From Escherichia coli (GTDB lineage: Bacteria; Pseudomonadota; Gammaproteobacteria; Enterobacterales; Enterobacteriaceae), in the NCBI RefSeq assembly GCF_003334355.1, contig NZ_QOWP01000012.1: a stretch of DNA of 64,000 nt, one strand, 5' to 3'. The translations under genes were made by a program, and so were the position numbers. Each line of letters starts with the position of its first letter. Position 1 is the stretch's first letter. The notes under the pieces were generated by a model. It had not been told where the DNA came from and did no database searches. It saw only the letters and a program-made list of their open reading frames with translations. Positions 39,860-64,000 of this stretch are shown in pieces.

Positions 39860-42208
39860 CTACTCTTTTACTAATTTTCCACTTTTATCCCAGGCGGAGA
39901 ATGGCATGGGTTTCTGGTACAGATACCCCTGAGCCTGAACACATCCTAATTTAATTAATTCGCGCGCAACGTCTTCGCTCTCTACGCCTTCCGCAATCAC
40001 CGGGATCCGGTTATAGCGTGCCAGATCGAAAATAATGCGCACAATTTTTCCCGCAGTACCGAAAATATCGCCGGTAAATTGCGAGTCCACCTTTATGCTG
40101 TCTGGATTAATTTCATAAAAACGTTTCAGGTTTGACAAACCGGTGCCAAAGTCATCAATCGATATCCGTACCCCTTGTTTACGCAGTTGTTCAATATTGA
40201 GATAAAAATGTTCATTAATTCGCTCGATCACGGTTTCAGTGATCTCAACACAGAGGCTGTTCGCCTTCAGGCCATTTTCTTTCATGATGGTGGTAAAACA
40301 CTCATGAAAGTGCGGTTCGTTTAACTGCCAGGGCGAAACATTAATATGCAGTAAGAAATCATCCTTCAGCGACGCACGCTGACTAAAATGTCTGAATTCA
40401 CCCATTGCCGTTTTAATAATCTGATAACCCAGCTCATTGATAAACCCGATATCTTCAGCAATGGTAATGAACTTCAGCGGTGAAATGATCCCCCGCTCCG
40501 CAGAAACCCAACGGCACAACGCCTCCGCGCCCAGAATGGCGCGGGTGTTAATATCAACGATCGGTTGATAGACGAGGAATAGTTCGCCAATTTCCATTGC
40601 ATGGCGAATATTACGCGCAATCCAGATATTCTCTTCTATTTCGTTGAGTTTCGCGTCATCACAGAAAATAAACTCGGAGAACATATGGTCACGGATACTG
40701 GAAATCGCCAGTTTCAGTTTTTCTGCGTAACTCCAGGCGTTTTCCCCCTGCAAAGGTTCACAAATGGCAGACTTATGGATGCGCAGATTGCGGTAGCCAA
40801 AGCTGCTGTCAAAATCGTTTACCATCGCTATTTTACGGGTAAATGTCTGTACATTTTCCCGACACAGAAGTAAATAGAGATCGGCATTGAATGTCACGAT
40901 ATCGCAGCATTGCGCATATTTCTCGGCAATTCGCTGACACAATTTCCTGACGATTTTATTGCGTTCATCAACACCAAACACCGCTTCCACGGCTTCCAGA
41001 CCACACAGTTTGATGATCCCCACAGCCAGATACTGATTATTGTTGGACTCAATAATCGCCATATTTTTAATAAAACCGCTTTCCTGATCGTAAGAGATCA
41101 GTGAGAGCAATTTATTTGACCGTTCAATTTCGGCATCTTTCATTTCCGCGATCGAATTTTTGATGCTGATAATCTCTTTCGCATCGCCTTCGCGAATTTT
41201 CAGAGCCTCGATCTGATCCGTTGAGTCGGGCAAAAACGCCAGCGTATTAACCAGCTCGGTCATTTCAGAAAATTGCCGACGGAACACACGAGTGGTCATG
41301 AAATATACCACCAGCAACACGATAATAATGAACGCAAACGGTAGATAAAAAAGTTTATCTGATGCGTTCAATAAATTACCGCCAGGATAATAAAAATAGA
41401 TTTCGAACAATGCATTATTTGGCACTGCTGATGTCTTTGCAATATACTCCGTATCGACAGAATCAATAATATTATAATTACCTTCGCTATTATAAATAAT
41501 CAGTTTTTCACGAGCGAGTTGATTCTTGGCAATGATCTCATGACCTTGTTTCAAAAATAGAACTTCATCATTAGCGCTGATTTGATCAAGATACTCGTTC
41601 AGATACCGCCAGTTTAAATCGACATGAATTTTATCTACCGCTAACAAATCGTGATCTTTGCCGTTGATACGTAGCGTAAAAGAGATACATTTTTTACCCG
41701 GACGATCAAAGCAATTGTATGCCGGATTCCAGCTGTTGTTAGAGTCATCTGAAGCCACCGACCACGGTCGTTTCGATGGGTTAAAATCGGCAAAAATAAC
41801 CCGCCCTGACTCGTCGACAAGCGGTCCATTTACTTGTTCCTGATGATAAACAACGATTTTATCATTCGCCCTCCGCGAAAAGAGATAATATTTATTATCA
41901 TCAAGTACCAGTCCCACCGAGTCTAAAAATGGCATCATTTCCATTTTCAGAATCACGGCGCGTTGAATCTCCTCTGTATTTTTTAATAAATACAGTGAGT
42001 CCTTTAATGTCAGGGCCGAACGTTCAATATCTTTAAAGAAATAGCCAACGTTTTTCTGAATAAGTTCAAAGCGGCTATCGGCACGTTTTACCGCGCGTTC
42101 CGATACCAGTTGATAGTTAATGATGAAAAAAAGACCAATAAATGACAGTGCTGCCAATAAAAATAAAATTATCAGCCTTATCTTTATCTTTTCGTATAAA
42201 CTCAGCAT
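39860..42208 (-). CDS. pdeI: Membrane-anchored c-di-GMP phosphodiesterase (EAL)
   Basis: 782 aa from the ATG (complement at 42206-42208); periplasmic sensor region, degenerate GGDEF-like segment, C-terminal EAL domain. Confidence 0.88.
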
Positions 42209-60524: not shown

Positions 60525-61643
60525 CTAGTTGGCCGGGAGTATAACTAACAAAACATATCCCACCAACGCCGCCCACAACAGCATCGGTATTGAATAGAGA
60601 TGGAAACGCCACCAGATGCGGCGATCGTTCGCCATACGTAGCGCAATCAAATTTGCCAGCGATCCGGGTAATAACCCAAAGCCACCTACGTTTACCGCCC
60701 ATACCAGTAATAAAGACGGCGGCACATAGTTCAGCAACAATATGGTACTCGGCACGTTACTGATCACCTGCGATAAACCGATTGCCGTTAACCATAACCC
60801 GGGTTCAGATAGATGACTCACGTTACCCAACACGCCTTGCAACGCTGGAAGCTGGGTCAGTAAATGGACGTCGATAAACATCGCCATAAACACCAGCAGC
60901 AGCGTCCAGTCCACACTGAGCACCACGCGACGTGCCAGCAGCGCAAAGCCTGCCGCCACAATCACCAGTCCCCACAGCTCTTGTTTGAACTCCAGCGCCG
61001 TCAGAAAGACGATATACAGCCCCAGACAACTCCACACCAGCCGCGGTTTCCACTCCGGTGTTTGCACCCCCGTATGGTATTGCAGCGCCTTTCCAGGGAA
61101 ACAACACCAGCACAGGAGCAGGAGCGTCAGCATCATTGCGCCAGCCAGCGGTGCCATTTGGGCAATAAATCCGGCAAACGAAAGACCAGAACGTCCCCAG
61201 ATAAGAATATTTTGCGGGTTGCCAATTGGCGTCAGTAGCGAACCAGCGTTGACTGCCAGCGCCTCAAAAATAATCAGCCGATTAACCGGGATCTCACACA
61301 GTCTTTTTAGCGTGATAGTCAGCGGAACAACAATAAACAGCGCGACATCGTTGGTCAGAAAGGTAGAAAGCAGCGCCGCCGCCAGCACCATAAACATCGC
61401 CAGCCGACGCTCCGTAGCAAAGCGGCGCACCATTTTGCGCCCCAGCACATCAAAATAACCGCTTAACTCCACACCTTTGGTCAGCAGCATCAGGCCGCTT
61501 AAGGTGATGATGGTGTGCCAGTCGATAGCAGCAGGCCAGGATTTCGGTGCAAAGGGCACGAAAAAGCTTAATCCGATACCAACAAGAATTAATAACTGAA
61601 AAAAACGATCGCCTTGCAGCGTGCGTAAAAAAGGCAGACTCAT
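60525..61643 (-). CDS. ybiR: Putative anion permease (ArsB/NhaD superfamily)
   Basis: 372 aa; polytopic; start overlaps the mntR stop (ATGA). Confidence 0.88.
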
Positions 61644-62107
61644 TTGGCACCGTGTTTCTGGGTAAACAAACGAAAAGCGTCGAGCGTCTCTTCACTAACA
61701 TGGTGCTCCATGCCTTCCGCGTCGCGACGGGCGATTTCCGGACTGACGCCCAACACCAACAAGAAATTTTCGACTATCTGATGTCGCTCGCGGCTTTCCT
61801 GCGCCAGCTTCTCTCCTTCTGCCGTTAAAAACACGCCACGCCAGGGGATCATTTCAATCAGCCCCATGGTTGCCAGCCGCTTAAGCATTTTAGCCACCGT
61901 CGGTTGCGAAACTCCCAGACGAGCAGCCATGTCCACCTGACGAGCTTCCCCCACTTCCCTGATCAAGTCAGAAATCAGCTCAACGTAATCATCAATAAGC
62001 TCGCGCCGATGCGCCTCTCTGACCTGGCGGAACCCTTCAACGTGCTCTTCCACGTTCACTAACTGCGTCACTTTTTTTGCTGTTGGCGTACCTGCGCGAC
62101 GACTCAT
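61640..62107 (-). CDS. mntR: Manganese-responsive DtxR-family repressor
   Basis: 155 aa; [28 protein letters not shown]. Confidence 0.92.
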
Positions 62108-62216
62108 TGTGCTTCCTCATTATGGTGACGCATACATAGCGTTCTCATTTCGTGCGCACATTGTAAACCAGAGTTGCGAAGGTACAAAAAATTAACGTTT
62201 TAGCAATAGCTATATA

Positions 62217-62234
62217 ATATAGCCTGTGCTATAT
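62217..62234. promoter_or_regulatory. Candidate MntR operator ATATAGC-ctgt-GCTATAT in the mntS promoter
   Basis: Perfect 7-nt inverted arms with a 4-nt spacer about 60 bp upstream of mntS; resembles the MntR box half-site ATAGC. mntS is a known MntR-repressed gene. Confidence 0.5.
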
Positions 62235-62292
62235 CTGTATGTAATGCAATCATCCCTCAAGGATCGACGGGATTAGCAAGTCAGGAGGTCTT

Positions 62293-62421
62293 ATGAATGA
62301 GTTCAAGAGGTGTATGCGCGTGTTTAGTCATTCTCCCTTTAAAGTACGGTTAATGCTGCTCTCTATGTTGTGCGATATGGTCAACAACAAACCGCAGCAA
62401 GATAAACCTTCCGATAAATAG
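62293..62421 (+). CDS. mntS: Small manganese-homeostasis protein MntS (RybA locus)
   Basis: 42-aa ORF MNEFKRCMRVFSHSPFKVRLMLLSMLCDMVNNKPQQDKPSDK read directly; AGGAGG 5 nt upstream of the ATG; below the length cut-off of the supplied ORF track. Confidence 0.8.
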   Translation: MNEFKRCMRVFSHSPFKVRLMLLSMLCDMVNNKPQQDKPSDK

Positions 62422-62692
62422 CGGCGTCGCGGTACGCCGCTTCACTCCTGCTTTCATGCAGGCATAACGCGTTTTGGTCTGAAAAACCCCACTTTTTGTC
62501 GGATTTGCAATCCCCTTCGCAAAAGATTTGTTCGTCAGTAGTTGACCTGAACGGCGGCTCGCTCTATCTTCTTGCAGCCCTGCGTATATTGCGGCTCGCG
62601 GATGCGGACCCCTTTCCACTCTTCACGCACTCTTGCAGGTATTGACCCTTGACGCCAGGGTAAGCACATGGCGTTTGTTACGATAGTGGCAT

Positions 62693-64000
62693 ATGAATTT
62701 AACCCTCAAAGAATCGCTTGTTACCCGTAGCCGGGTATTTAGCCCGTGGACTGCGTTCTACTTTTTACAGTCGCTATTAATTAACCTCGGCTTAGGTTAC
62801 CCCTTCAGTTTGCTCTACACCGCTGCGTTTACGGCTATTTTGCTTTTGCTATGGCGAACATTGCCTCGCGTACAAAAAGTTCTGGTCGGTGTCAGTTCGC
62901 TGGTGGCGGCTTGTTATTTCCCTTTTGCTCAGGCCTACGGCGCGCCTAATTTCAATACATTGCTGGCATTGCACTCCACCAATATGGAAGAGTCGACCGA
63001 AATCCTGACGATTTTTCCGTGGTACAGCTACCTGGTCGGCTTATTTATTTTTGCGCTCGGCGTAATAGCAATCAGGCGAAAAAAAGAGAATGAAAAAGCG
63101 CGCTGGAATACCTTCGACAGCCTGTGTCTGGTATTCAGTGTGGCGACATTTTTTGTTGCTCCCGTGCAAAACCTGGCCTGGGGTGGCGTATTTAAACTGA
63201 AAGATACTGGCTATCCGGTATTTCGTTTTGCTAAGGATGTCATCGTCAATAATAACGAGGTGATTGAAGAGCAAGAACGGATGGCAAAACTTTCCGGAAT
63301 GAAAGATACCTGGACGGTCACTGCCGTTAAGCCGAAGTATCAGACCTATGTGGTGGTGATCGGTGAAAGCGCGCGTCGCGATGCCCTCGGTGCCTTTGGC
63401 GGTCACTGGGACAATACCCCGTTTGCCAGCAGCGTTAACGGTTTGATATTTGCTGACTACATTGCCGCCAGTGGCTCCACGCAGAAATCGCTTGGCTTAA
63501 CGCTCAATCGCGTTGTCGATGGCAAACCACAGTTTCAGGATAACTTTGTCACCCTGGCAAATCGCGCGGGCTTCCAGACCTGGTGGTTTTCCAACCAGGG
63601 TCAAATCGGCGAATACGATACCGCTATCGCCAGCATCGCCAAACGAGCAGATGAAGTGTACTTCCTGAAAGAAGGTAATTTTGAAGCAGATAAAAACACC
63701 AAAGACGAAGCGTTACTGGATATGACCGCTCAAGTGCTGGCGCAAGAGCACTCGCAACCGCAGCTGATTGTTCTACATCTGATGGGCTCACATCCGCAGG
63801 CCTGCGACAGGACACAAGGAAAATACGAAACCTTTGTGCAATCGAAAGAAACGTCGTGCTATCTCTATACCATGACGCAAACGGACGATTTACTGCGCAA
63901 GCTGTACGATCAGTTACGCAACAGCGGCAGCAGCTTCTCGCTGGTTTACTTTTCTGACCACGGTCTGGCCTTTAAAGAGCGCGGTAAAGACGTGCAATAC
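62693..64000 (+). CDS. opgE: Phosphoethanolamine transferase for periplasmic glucans (partial, 3' end beyond window)
   Basis: Open frame from the ATG at 62693 to the window end (436 codons, no stop); MNLTLKESLVTRSRVFSPW; N-terminal transmembrane helices then sulfatase-like domain. Confidence 0.85.
   Translation, partial: MNLTLKESLVTRSRVFSPWTAFYFLQSLLINLGLGYPFSLLYTAAFTAILLLLWRTLPRVQKVLVGVSSLVAACYFPFAQAYGAPNFNTLLALHSTNMEESTEILTIFPWYSYLVGLFIFALGVIAIRRKKENEKARWNTFDSLCLVFSVATFFVAPVQNLAWGGVFKLKDTGYPVFRFAKDVIVNNNEVIEEQERMAKLSGMKDTWTVTAVKPKYQTYVVVIGESARRDALGAFGGHWDNTPFASSVNGLIFADYIAASGSTQKSLGLTLNRVVDGKPQFQDNFVTLANRAGFQTWWFSNQGQIGEYDTAIASIAKRADEVYFLKEGNFEADKNTKDEALLDMTAQVLAQEHSQPQLIVLHLMGSHPQACDRTQGKYETFVQSKETSCYLYTMTQTDDLLRKLYDQLRNSGSSFSLVYFSDHGLAFKERGKDVQY

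Follow-up and report, generated by a model that had tools for sequence, protein, structure and literature searches.

MntS/RybA of Escherichia coli K-12 (b4705/b4416) was reportedly studied by Waters, Sandoval and Storz in 2011. Translation of the protein and its manganese- and MntR-dependent repression have been reported (PMC4361602; PMC9806134; bioRxiv 10.1101/2020.05.26.116038), and translation of Salmonella MntS was validated with a SPA tag and Ribo-seq (bioRxiv 10.1101/2020.05.26.116038). MntS binds and inhibits MntP (bioRxiv 10.1101/2023.06.02.543501). Phenotypes of MntS overproduction require the protein and not the RNA, and Hfq is dispensable for them (PMC4361602).

The window analysed here is a 64,000-nucleotide stretch of E. 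coli DNA, 100% identical to E. coli K-12 over the mntR–mntS–opgE region. Taken whole, the evidence is best explained if the locus is mntR–mntS(RybA)–opgE of K-12, and we regard this as very probable. Its annotated parts are as follows.

61640–62107, minus strand: mntR coding sequence (ORF list, NCBIfam NF008273, RefSeq).
62226–62565, plus strand: rybA non-coding RNA (b4416), 340 nt, enclosing mntS (NC_000913.3 feature table, 852725..853064).
62283–62288, plus strand: Shine–Dalgarno sequence AGGAGG, 4 nt before the mntS ATG, containing the GGA at 62284–62286.
62293–62421, plus strand: mntS coding sequence, 42 amino acids (ORF list, NF033226, RefSeq).
62693–64000, plus strand, continuing past the window end: opgE coding sequence, phosphoethanolamine transferase for periplasmic glucans (RefSeq; PMC3818809).

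The original prediction had described a 42-codon ORF with a strong Shine–Dalgarno sequence, divergent from mntR, and had named both genes. Each of these points was borne out by the ORF list and the positions above; both genes are in RefSeq, and in profile searches both products scored well above the cut-offs (96 bits against 36, E = 6e-28, for NCBIfam small_MntS NF033226; 269 bits against 153 for the MntR equivalog NF008273). The mntR product is named in RefSeq and NCBIfam as a Mn2+-sensing regulator of the DtxR family, and its stop codon shares 4 nt with the start of ybiR (60525–61643). Membership of the MntS family is indicated by a length within about 40–45 residues together with the N-terminal motif MNEFKRC...FSHSPFKVRL, and by the divergent mntR neighbour with an MntR-type box in the shared intergenic region. 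Over 21 diverse homologues, 18 columns were invariant, including H13, S14, P15 and F16. All 120 listed homologues carried PF26599 (precomputed), and the named ones were all from Enterobacteriaceae. Variable sites fell at codon positions 1, 2 and 3 in 17, 10 and 30 cases, out of 36 each, which is a coding pattern of substitution. The Shine–Dalgarno sequence was near-invariant in 59 orthologues.

Gene order was equally stable. mntR lay 180–189 bp upstream of mntS in 73 of the 74 loci with a measurable distance, the exception being L032 (432 bp); this count leaves out L009 and L023, with a prophage between the genes, and L026, where the upstream flank is too short for mntR. mntS and opgE were adjacent in 80/80 orthologous loci, with a gap of 254–289 nt in the 77 that could be measured. 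Going by annotation and published work, the 42-residue MntS is made under manganese scarcity and inhibits the MntP exporter. The identification of mntS is thus correct, yet the gene is already known and well studied; finding it adds nothing biologically new, since a textbook small-protein gene has been identified again. It does illustrate reasonably well how a functional gene can be lost below the 60-amino-acid floor of an ORF track. The sole uncharted portion of the locus is the strongly conserved promoter and leader ahead of opgE.

Between the two divergent genes lie the following promoter and operator elements.

62153–62187, minus strand: mntR promoter (transcription start site, TSS, at 62153; −10 TACAAT at 62160–62165; −35 TTGTAC at 62182–62187; hexamers read from the sequence).
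62198–62215, unstranded: predicted MntR box 1, TTTTAGC-AATA-GCTATAT, one mismatch to ATAGC-N4-GCTAT.
62213–62243, plus strand: mntS/RybA core promoter (TATAAT at 62213–62218, which fits the RefSeq 5′ end at 62226; extended −10 TGcTATATC at 62227–62235, which fits the TSS at 62243; hexamers read from the sequence).
62217–62234, unstranded: predicted MntR box 2, ATATAGC-CTGT-GCTATAT, a perfect inverted repeat with arms 62217–62223 and 62228–62234 and a 4-nt spacer.

The perfect ATATAGC-N4-GCTATAT palindrome that had been noted upstream of mntS was located at 62217–62234 and, judged from its sequence, is a putative MntR-type box. Box 1, which adjoins it, had been missed at first reading. In K-12, the core ATAGC-N4-GCTAT was matched without mismatch by mntS box 2, by mntH and by one mntP box, and with one mismatch by mntS box 1 and the other mntP box, both of which are TTAGC variants. 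The box 2 18-mer was identical in 66/79 loci and its half-sites were kept in 79/79; box 1 half-sites were kept in most of the 79, with a perfect ATAGC-N4-GCTAT in many genera. Repeat rarity counts for little here, as the window holds 10 perfect 7-N4-7 repeats (about 3.7 in shuffles) and 1.8 chance occurrences of ATAGCNNNNGCTAT with at most one mismatch are expected. Box 2 is significant because it matches the mntH and mntP boxes, overlaps the promoter and has its half-sites in every locus.

Repression of PmntS depends on manganese and MntR (PMC9806134; PMC4361602). The two adjacent boxes overlap the mntS promoter, and RNA polymerase would be blocked once Mn2+-MntR occupied them, a model that draws on box positions and conservation with the published repression behind it. 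The TGTGCTATATCTGTATGTAAT stretch of the mntS promoter was invariant across genera, and the block ACAAAAAATTAACG in the mntR promoter was conserved across genera. In supplement 2 of Kim 2012 (PMC3415461), the mntS TSS stands at 852270 (U00096.2), window position 62243, with 1402 reads, and the mntR TSS, converted to window coordinates, at 62153 with 24 reads. The recorded RybA 5′ ends differ (62226 in RefSeq, 62243 by TSS-seq); the Cappable-seq and SMRT-Cappable-seq supplements held zero entries at the mntS–opgE locus. A P2-like prophage family, found in E. coli and Citrobacter, uses the MntR operator as its attachment site, with integration at the position matching 62212. It is a prophage that separates mntR from mntS in L009 and L023, and a P2-like prophage in the operator could alter mntS control in lysogens.

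Two-site CsrA targets carry one GGA in a hairpin loop and a second about 10–60 nt away, near the Shine–Dalgarno sequence. The mntS 5′ UTR has both.

62253–62271, plus strand: 5′ UTR hairpin (stem 62253–62258 with 62266–62271; loop AAGGAUC at 62259–62265, with a conserved A-N-GGA).

Across the alignment, 91% of cells were paired and 4/6 pairs had compensatory changes, a score reached in 0/500 shuffles. One GGA lies in the loop (62261–62263) and the other in the Shine–Dalgarno sequence (62284–62286). In the published CLIP-seq table, the hairpin falls within CsrA peak_81, and the entry for the mntS peak is ‘No’ in each of its three Yes/No columns (PMC5694010 supplement 3). Covariation, sequence and the published CLIP-seq together identify the hairpin A-N-GGA and the Shine–Dalgarno GGA as a two-site CsrA target. 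The hairpin explains the CsrA peak, for which no follow-up was found in the literature searched.

At the other end of mntS, the transcript meets a strong hairpin.

62420–62441, plus strand: mntS terminator-like hairpin, AGCGGCGU-CGCGGU-ACGCCGCU (inverted repeat, fold, Term-seq end at 62445).
62447–62462, plus strand: second, Escherichia-specific hairpin, CCUGC/GCAGG, followed by a 3′ end at 62474 in CGUUUU, before its last U (fold, Term-seq).

The original prediction was right that a GC-rich hairpin exists and 9 nt off in placing it at 62429–62450. AGCGGCGT and ACGCCGCT pair without mismatch over 8 bp around a loop of 6 nt, the hairpin overlaps the TAG stop codon (62419–62421), and only 3 perfect 8-N6-8 repeats occur in the window, against 0.8 expected. 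The 20-nt hairpin sequence, loop included, was identical in 5/5 Escherichia and 54/72 other loci, and the GCGGCG/CGCCGC stem was present in 77/78. Published Term-seq places a 3′ end at 852845 (window 62445), 4 nt past the hairpin (PMC7815308 supplement 1). Outside Escherichia, the tail averaged 6.3 T per 10 nt (TTCATTTTTC, 72 loci) versus 3.6 in Escherichia; the E. coli tail UUCACUCCUG has TTCACTCCTG in place of the T-tract TTCATTTTTC and so lacks a U-run, which is why a simple terminator scan of E. coli returned 0 terminators. From the Term-seq end and the comparative data, the E. coli hairpin works like a terminator or a 3′-end-protecting hairpin and is not a canonical terminator.

Further 3′ ends lie beyond it. 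One, at 852816 (window 62474), was recorded in 2/3 listed growth conditions (PMC7815308 supplement 1); it lies 12 nt beyond the second hairpin and may therefore be a processing product, and the region 62447–62474 has no conservation in other genera. A Rho-termination region peaks at 852560 (window 62730; score 6.19, p = 5e-42), a coarse position, since flanking coverage on both sides goes into the score, and bicyclomycin raised coverage downstream of it six-fold (PMC7815308 supplement 2). Seven RybA species share a common 5′ end and range in length from 205 to about 400 nt (PMC4361602). We suggest that the GC hairpin over the stop codon would act as an intrinsic terminator to give the RNA of about 205 nt, that decay of the U-tract in Escherichia would let some transcripts continue to 62474 and further, and that Rho would finally halt the long ones ahead of opgE or shortly after its start, as the published bicyclomycin effect implies. 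Such a sequence of U-tract decay, read-through and Rho stop would explain the RybA ladder.

The distance of about 240 bp from hairpin to opgE had been given closely enough (62442–62692, 251 nt to the opgE ATG), while the suggestion of structured RNA within it fared poorly. Fold energies of three stretches were ordinary relative to shuffles (z = −1.15, −0.54 and +0.81), with nothing beyond composition; an Rfam 15 scan of 61900–62900 at E up to 10 returned only chance-level matches to eukaryotic snoRNA, miRNA and lncRNA families; and there was essentially no covariation. An 89-amino-acid antisense ORF at 62350–62619 was rejected by inspection, as indel lengths in this interval do not keep to multiples of three from genus to genus. 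Part of the stretch belongs to the long isoform of RybA, annotated as far as 62565, and the 340-nt span of that annotation is one reason to ask whether RybA is also a base-pairing or protein-titrating regulatory RNA with its functional module in a structured 3′ part (62422–62565). Gerstle 2012, as summarised in PMC11878033, describes RybA as Hfq-independent and peroxide-induced, with proposed repression of aroF/aroL through TyrR under peroxide stress; PMC4361602 does not exclude an sRNA role in other contexts, and the terminator hairpin is unusually invariant down to its loop. Against such a role, the overproduction phenotypes need the protein and not Hfq (PMC4361602), fold energies in the 3′ part are ordinary, and 62442–62485 sits at background identity (about 0.53) and is wholly different between genera. 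In most genera, moreover, a proper terminator directly after the mntS stop means that a long 3′ part would not be made. We consider a regulatory RNA module there quite improbable. The conserved part of the downstream stretch looks like a promoter and leader belonging to opgE rather than an appendage of mntS.

62504–62523, unstranded: TTTGC-N10-GCAAA, an inverted repeat with its centre about 63 bp ahead of the predicted opgE start.
62542–62570, plus strand: predicted sigma-70-type opgE promoter, TTGACC-17-TATCTT (promoter scan, 9/12 matches).
62577–62692, plus strand: predicted opgE leader, about 115–116 nt in E. coli, containing a 41-nt block at 62635–62675 (GCAGGTATTGACCCTTGACGCCAGGGTAAGCACATGGCGTT).
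62668–62730, plus strand: upstream ORF (uORF), 20 codons in Escherichia, starting at an invariant AUG in the leader block (ORF list).

Over 79 loci, the predicted promoter kept TTGACC in 71, the 17-nt spacer in all and TATCTT in 78. Kim 2012 recorded no TSS reads at this promoter and only sites of 3–4 reads at 62668 and 62455; for the Klebsiella orthologue of opgE, no TSS appeared in the part of that dataset searched. By inspection, the TTTGC/GCAAA arms upstream were conserved across genera with no co-variation, and the repeat may be a regulator site. No fit was found by eye, around 62486–62680, to sigma-54, sigma-32 or sigma-E promoter shapes or to Pho, CpxR, CRP or PurR-like boxes, and no motif of the opgE control region recurred ahead of opgC, opgG, opgB or opgD, where matches were limited to chance ones of 7–8 nt. 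The 41-nt block had a median identity to E. coli of 0.90 in 30 distant loci, against 0.41 at 4-fold degenerate sites, which points to purifying selection on the opgE leader. It was at least 99% identical in 5399/5422 E. coli genomes, without annotation; a search of the 5422 genomes for a paralogue found one copy per genome and none besides. The uORF ended 3–12 nt before the opgE ATG in 55/79 loci, mostly after 4–5 codons, and its peptide begins MA(F). A conserved leader peptide was rejected, because length, frame and the sequence after MAF vary among loci; so was an N-terminal extension of OpgE in E. coli, because of the in-frame TAG at 62684–62686.

On conservation, then, the last 150 nt or so before opgE would be its own promoter and leader. 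What the leader does could be read in several ways. One is that the 41-nt block is a new cis-regulatory RNA, a small pseudoknot or alternative hairpin pair with a mini-uORF, which would set the amount of transcription and translation that passes the Rho-sensitive opgE start. Its identity far above neutral, the invariant leader AUG preceded by AGGG, the mini-uORF ending just ahead of an opgE that itself has no good Shine–Dalgarno sequence, and the Rho-dependent stop at 62730 would all suit a gated start, and a 2023 review lists OpgE regulation as unknown. The possible helices ACCCU/AGGGU and ACGCC/GGCGU were paired in 95% of cells, with one A-U to C-G swap in 10–11 sequences; yet in the model of 15 pairs, a pseudoknot plus a long-range helix, only pair 145–161 makes that swap, and most pairs never vary and so carry no information on structure. 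RNAalifold on 62 leaders gave one invariant hairpin with 0/11 pairs compensatory, the folding energy of the leader did not beat that of shuffles (z = +0.81), and the leader matched no Rfam family even at E = 10. Neither the uORF peptide nor its length or frame is conserved, and conservation of the block could reflect the DNA site of a protein. We therefore hold a cis-regulatory RNA to be unlikely.

Another reading dispenses with an opgE promoter that is normally active: transcripts reading through from the manganese-repressed mntS promoter would supply opgE expression in a leaky mntS–opgE operon, coupling periplasmic-glucan decoration to manganese status. The constant adjacency and narrow gap of the two genes fit this, as do the mntS TSS being the only strong one of the region in Kim 2012, the missing U-tract in E. 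coli, RybA species that reach about 400 nt and the bicyclomycin effect. However, a well-spaced, invariant promoter stands between mntS and opgE in 79/79 loci, a good intrinsic terminator follows mntS in most genera, read-through is blocked by Rho when cells are untreated, and the only MntR targets we found named in the literature are mntH, mntS and mntP. We think read-through as the normal source of opgE expression highly unlikely. Returning to opgE's own promoter and leader, the fullest proposal is that 62504–62692 (about 190 nt) might be an undescribed, genus-spanning opgE control region made up of an upstream inverted repeat, the invariant promoter and a leader whose 41-nt block, perhaps forming a pseudoknot and carrying a mini-uORF, would gate Rho-dependent termination at the gene start; as a combined claim it is unlikely. 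A bolder version, in which read-through from the mntS promoter feeds this gate, would, if true, link manganese status to periplasmic-glucan modification. With no described regulation of opgE, upstream conservation far above neutral and a published Rho-sensitive stop adjacent, the region is a concrete, testable starting point.

Set beside known systems, the mntS operator resembles that of mntP in K-12, which likewise carries a pair of boxes, including the TTAGC variant seen in mntS box 1. The centres of the mntS boxes are separated by 19 bp and the boxes lie over the core promoter, which fits repression, whereas the mntP boxes are 40 bp apart and upstream, and activation is reported in the literature. 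With two-site CsrA targets, mntS shares an A-N-GGA in a covarying loop, a second GGA 23 nt downstream in the Shine–Dalgarno sequence and a CLIP-seq peak over both; it differs in that no CsrA regulatory effect on mntS was found in the CLIP-seq dataset or the literature searched. The 3′ region is like that of leaky intrinsic terminators backed by Rho, with a GC hairpin, a 3′ end 4 nt on, further ends and, about 290 nt on, a stop sensitive to bicyclomycin, but the E. coli mntS hairpin has almost no U-tract and may act by termination or as an exonuclease block. The closest system is MntS/RybA of K-12 itself (Martin et al. 2015; Wright et al. 2023), which the locus matches base for base, with the same 42-residue protein (WP_001001761.1), the same divergent mntR, the same manganese and MntR control and no difference. 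What is added to the known K-12 mntS is comparative detail only: two boxes, covariation in the 5′ UTR hairpin and a terminator U-tract that has decayed in Escherichia.

Window positions 62050-62750 are 100% identical to K-12. Of 5426 complete E. coli genomes, 5422 contain the region, and their RefSeq features under the match are mntR, mntS and opgE. The mntS gene, its operator and the RybA RNA that contains the gene are already known and annotated. The genes below follow the K-12 feature tables, and rybA is 852725..853064 in NC_000913.3; genome positions (g) were converted to window positions (w) with g = 915290 - w, verified with a Term-seq entry described as '24 nt into mntS'.

Annotated features of the mntS region
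60525-61643, - strand, ybiR
61640-62107, - strand, mntR
62226-62565, ncRNA rybA (b4416)
62293-62421, + strand, mntS
from 62693, + strand, opgE

The original prediction was right on gene, operator and RNA, imprecise in its hairpin position and unsupported in proposing a structured RNA. The 42-codon ORF lies where described (62293-62421), with the strong Shine-Dalgarno sequence claimed for it (AGGAGG, 62283-62288) and with mntR divergent on the opposite strand. Against NCBIfam small_MntS (cut-off 36) its 42-aa product reaches 96 bits; the protein of the neighbouring gene reaches 269 bits with the MntR equivalog model (cut-off 153). All 120 MntS homologues listed by a protein search carry Pfam PF26599, and those among them with a named source come from Enterobacteriaceae without exception. 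Variable sites at codon positions 1, 2 and 3 of mntS number 17, 10 and 30, the distribution that marks a translated gene. In published work, tags and Ribo-seq demonstrated translation of Salmonella MntS (bioRxiv 10.1101/2020.05.26.116038), manganese phenotypes were caused by the protein and not the RNA (PMC4361602), MntS bound and inhibited MntP (bioRxiv 10.1101/2023.06.02.543501), and its origin was traced to a SitA signal peptide. The start of ybiR and the stop of mntR share 4 nt (ATGA, 61640-61643), an overlap that points to translational coupling within an mntR-ybiR operon.

The GC-rich hairpin predicted downstream of mntS (AGCGGCGT/ACGCCGCT) exists, although 9 nt upstream of where it had been placed: it occupies 62420-62441 and overlaps the TAG stop codon. 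Evidence is against the structured RNA proposed beyond it: fold energies are ordinary for 62226-62474 (z = -1.15), 62415-62565 (z = -0.54) and 62576-62710 (z = +0.81), an Rfam scan of the region gave no match, and between genera 62442-62485 is at the background level of identity. Published Term-seq data (PMC7815308 supp. 1) give a 3' end at 62445, 4 nt beyond the hairpin, and another at 62474, downstream of a second hairpin (62447-62462) present in Escherichia only. The GCGGCG/CGCCGC stem was detected in 77 of 78 loci, and all 20 nt of the hairpin sequence are shared by 5/5 Escherichia and 54/72 other sequences. Directly after it, loci outside Escherichia carry TTCATTTTTC (6.3 T in 10 nt) and Escherichia carries TTCACTCCTG (3.6 T in 10 nt); because this T-poor sequence replaces the T-rich tail of other genera, a terminator scan of the E. 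coli sequence detected none after mntS. The hairpin is near-invariant including its loop, though adjacent non-coding DNA has diverged freely between genera; such invariance is unusual for a terminator and may point to a partner that recognises the sequence. The other two perfect 8-N6-8 inverted repeats in the window are at 96-117 and 41974-41995.

Further downstream, a published Rho-termination region peaks at 62730 (score 6.19, p = 5e-42), and bicyclomycin raised coverage beyond it from 85 to 534 (PMC7815308). The RNA between the Term-seq 3' ends and this region is rich in C over G. Seven RybA species, from 205 nt up to about 400 nt, have been published (PMC4361602), a ladder that a leaky hairpin followed by Rho would generate.

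The conserved region upstream of opgE most probably serves to control opgE itself. In all 77 measurable loci, mntS and opgE are 254-289 nt apart. A predicted promoter, TTGACC-17-TATCTT at 62542-62570, is near-invariant (spacer of 17 in 79/79 loci, -10 TATCTT in 78/79); the TSS-seq study (PMC3415461) reports no reads for it, a 2023 review gives OpgE regulation as unknown, and the paper in which opgE was named is silent on its promoter. Upstream of this promoter, at about 63 bp from the predicted opgE start, stands an inverted repeat, TTTGC-N10-GCAAA (62504-62523); it is conserved, flanked by A- and T-tracts, and not known to match any transcription-factor motif. No motif common to this region and other opg genes was found.

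The predicted leader (95-121 nt) includes a 41-nt block, 62635-62675, with a median identity of 0.90 in 30 distant loci versus 0.41 at opgE fourfold degenerate sites; neutral sites of the compared genera are saturated at 41%, against about 90% for the block. It is single-copy and unannotated, shows at least 99% identity across 5399 of 5422 E. coli genomes, and has neither an Rfam match nor a paralogue. A small pseudoknot can be drawn for it (ACCCU/AGGGU and ACGCC/GGCGU), with covariation at one pair only. Within the block lies an invariant AUG with AGGG ahead of it. The uORF starting there (62668) stops 3-12 nt upstream of the opgE AUG in 55/79 loci, mostly after 4-5 codons, with no conservation of peptide, length or frame across the 79 loci; in Escherichia, a 1-nt insertion takes it to 20 codons, reaching 62730. 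Its stop there (62728-62730) falls at the published Rho peak, a match that may be coincidence. Overall, the opgE leader offers a modest lead.

In the mntS 5' UTR, comparative evidence supports a 6-bp hairpin (62253-62258 with 62266-62271): 91% of cells are paired, 4 of 6 pairs show compensatory changes, and no shuffle or slid register came near its score. A-N-GGA is retained in its loop, and the Shine-Dalgarno sequence contains a second GGA 23 nt downstream, an arrangement typical of CsrA targets. A published CsrA CLIP-seq peak (peak_81) spans exactly 62225-62347 (log2 enrichment 1.93, 5.8e-12; PMC5694010 supp. 3). The hairpin and both GGA elements (62253-62288) lie inside it, and our literature search found no paper discussing or following up this peak on mntS. 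A strong Term-seq 3' end in one growth condition, at 62317, 24 nt inside the ORF (PMC7815308 supp. 1), may stem from premature termination, from processing or from ribosome-protected decay.

The palindrome claimed upstream of mntS, ATATAGC-CTGT-GCTATAT, is indeed perfect (62217-62234, box 2). By itself it proves nothing, because such repeats are not rare: the window holds ten perfect 7-N4-7 repeats versus 3.7 expected, and 1.8 chance occurrences of a relaxed box pattern are expected. One base away lies an overlooked second box, TTTTAGC-AATA-GCTATAT (62198-62215, box 1). Across 79 orthologous loci, from Escherichia to Kosakonia, the half-sites of box 2 are retained in all 79 and the identical 18-mer in 66; box 1 is retained in most, with a perfect ATAGC-N4-GCTAT in many genera.

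RefSeq puts the rybA 5' end at 62226, compatible with TATAAT at 62213-62218. TSS-seq gave 1402 reads at 62243 (PMC3415461), a start compatible with an invariant extended -10, TGcTATATC (62227-62235); RNA from there to 62445 would be 203 nt, near the published 205 nt (PMC4361602). Under either start both boxes cover the core promoter, in keeping with published PmntS fusions whose repression depended on Mn and MntR (PMC9806134). A conserved upstream block, ACAAAAAATTAACG, forms part of the promoter of the divergent mntR, where the TSS lies at 62153 (PMC3415461).

Among 5426 complete E. coli genomes, 30 have the mntR-mntS region split by a prophage, whose integrase, CI and CII genes adjoin mntS. 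The prophage is P2-like and sits inside the MntR operator (window 62198-62240; 2400-2530 in fetched locus L088, about 1290-2440 in the prophage loci L009 and L023). In split loci, identity to the window restarts at about 62212; therefore box 2 is retained and box 1 swapped, a degenerate prophage-borne copy, AGATAGTTGATGCTTTAT, standing in its place. Two Citrobacter genomes carry the same integrase (97% identity) at the same site, and no close relative was found among 50,697 phage records.

Compared with known MntR targets, the ATAGC-N4-GCTAT core is identical to the site upstream of K-12 mntH, aaaacATAGCCTTTGCTATgtttc. Two further sites that it matches, TTAGCCAAAGCTAT and ATAGCTTAGGCTAT, are both upstream of mntP.
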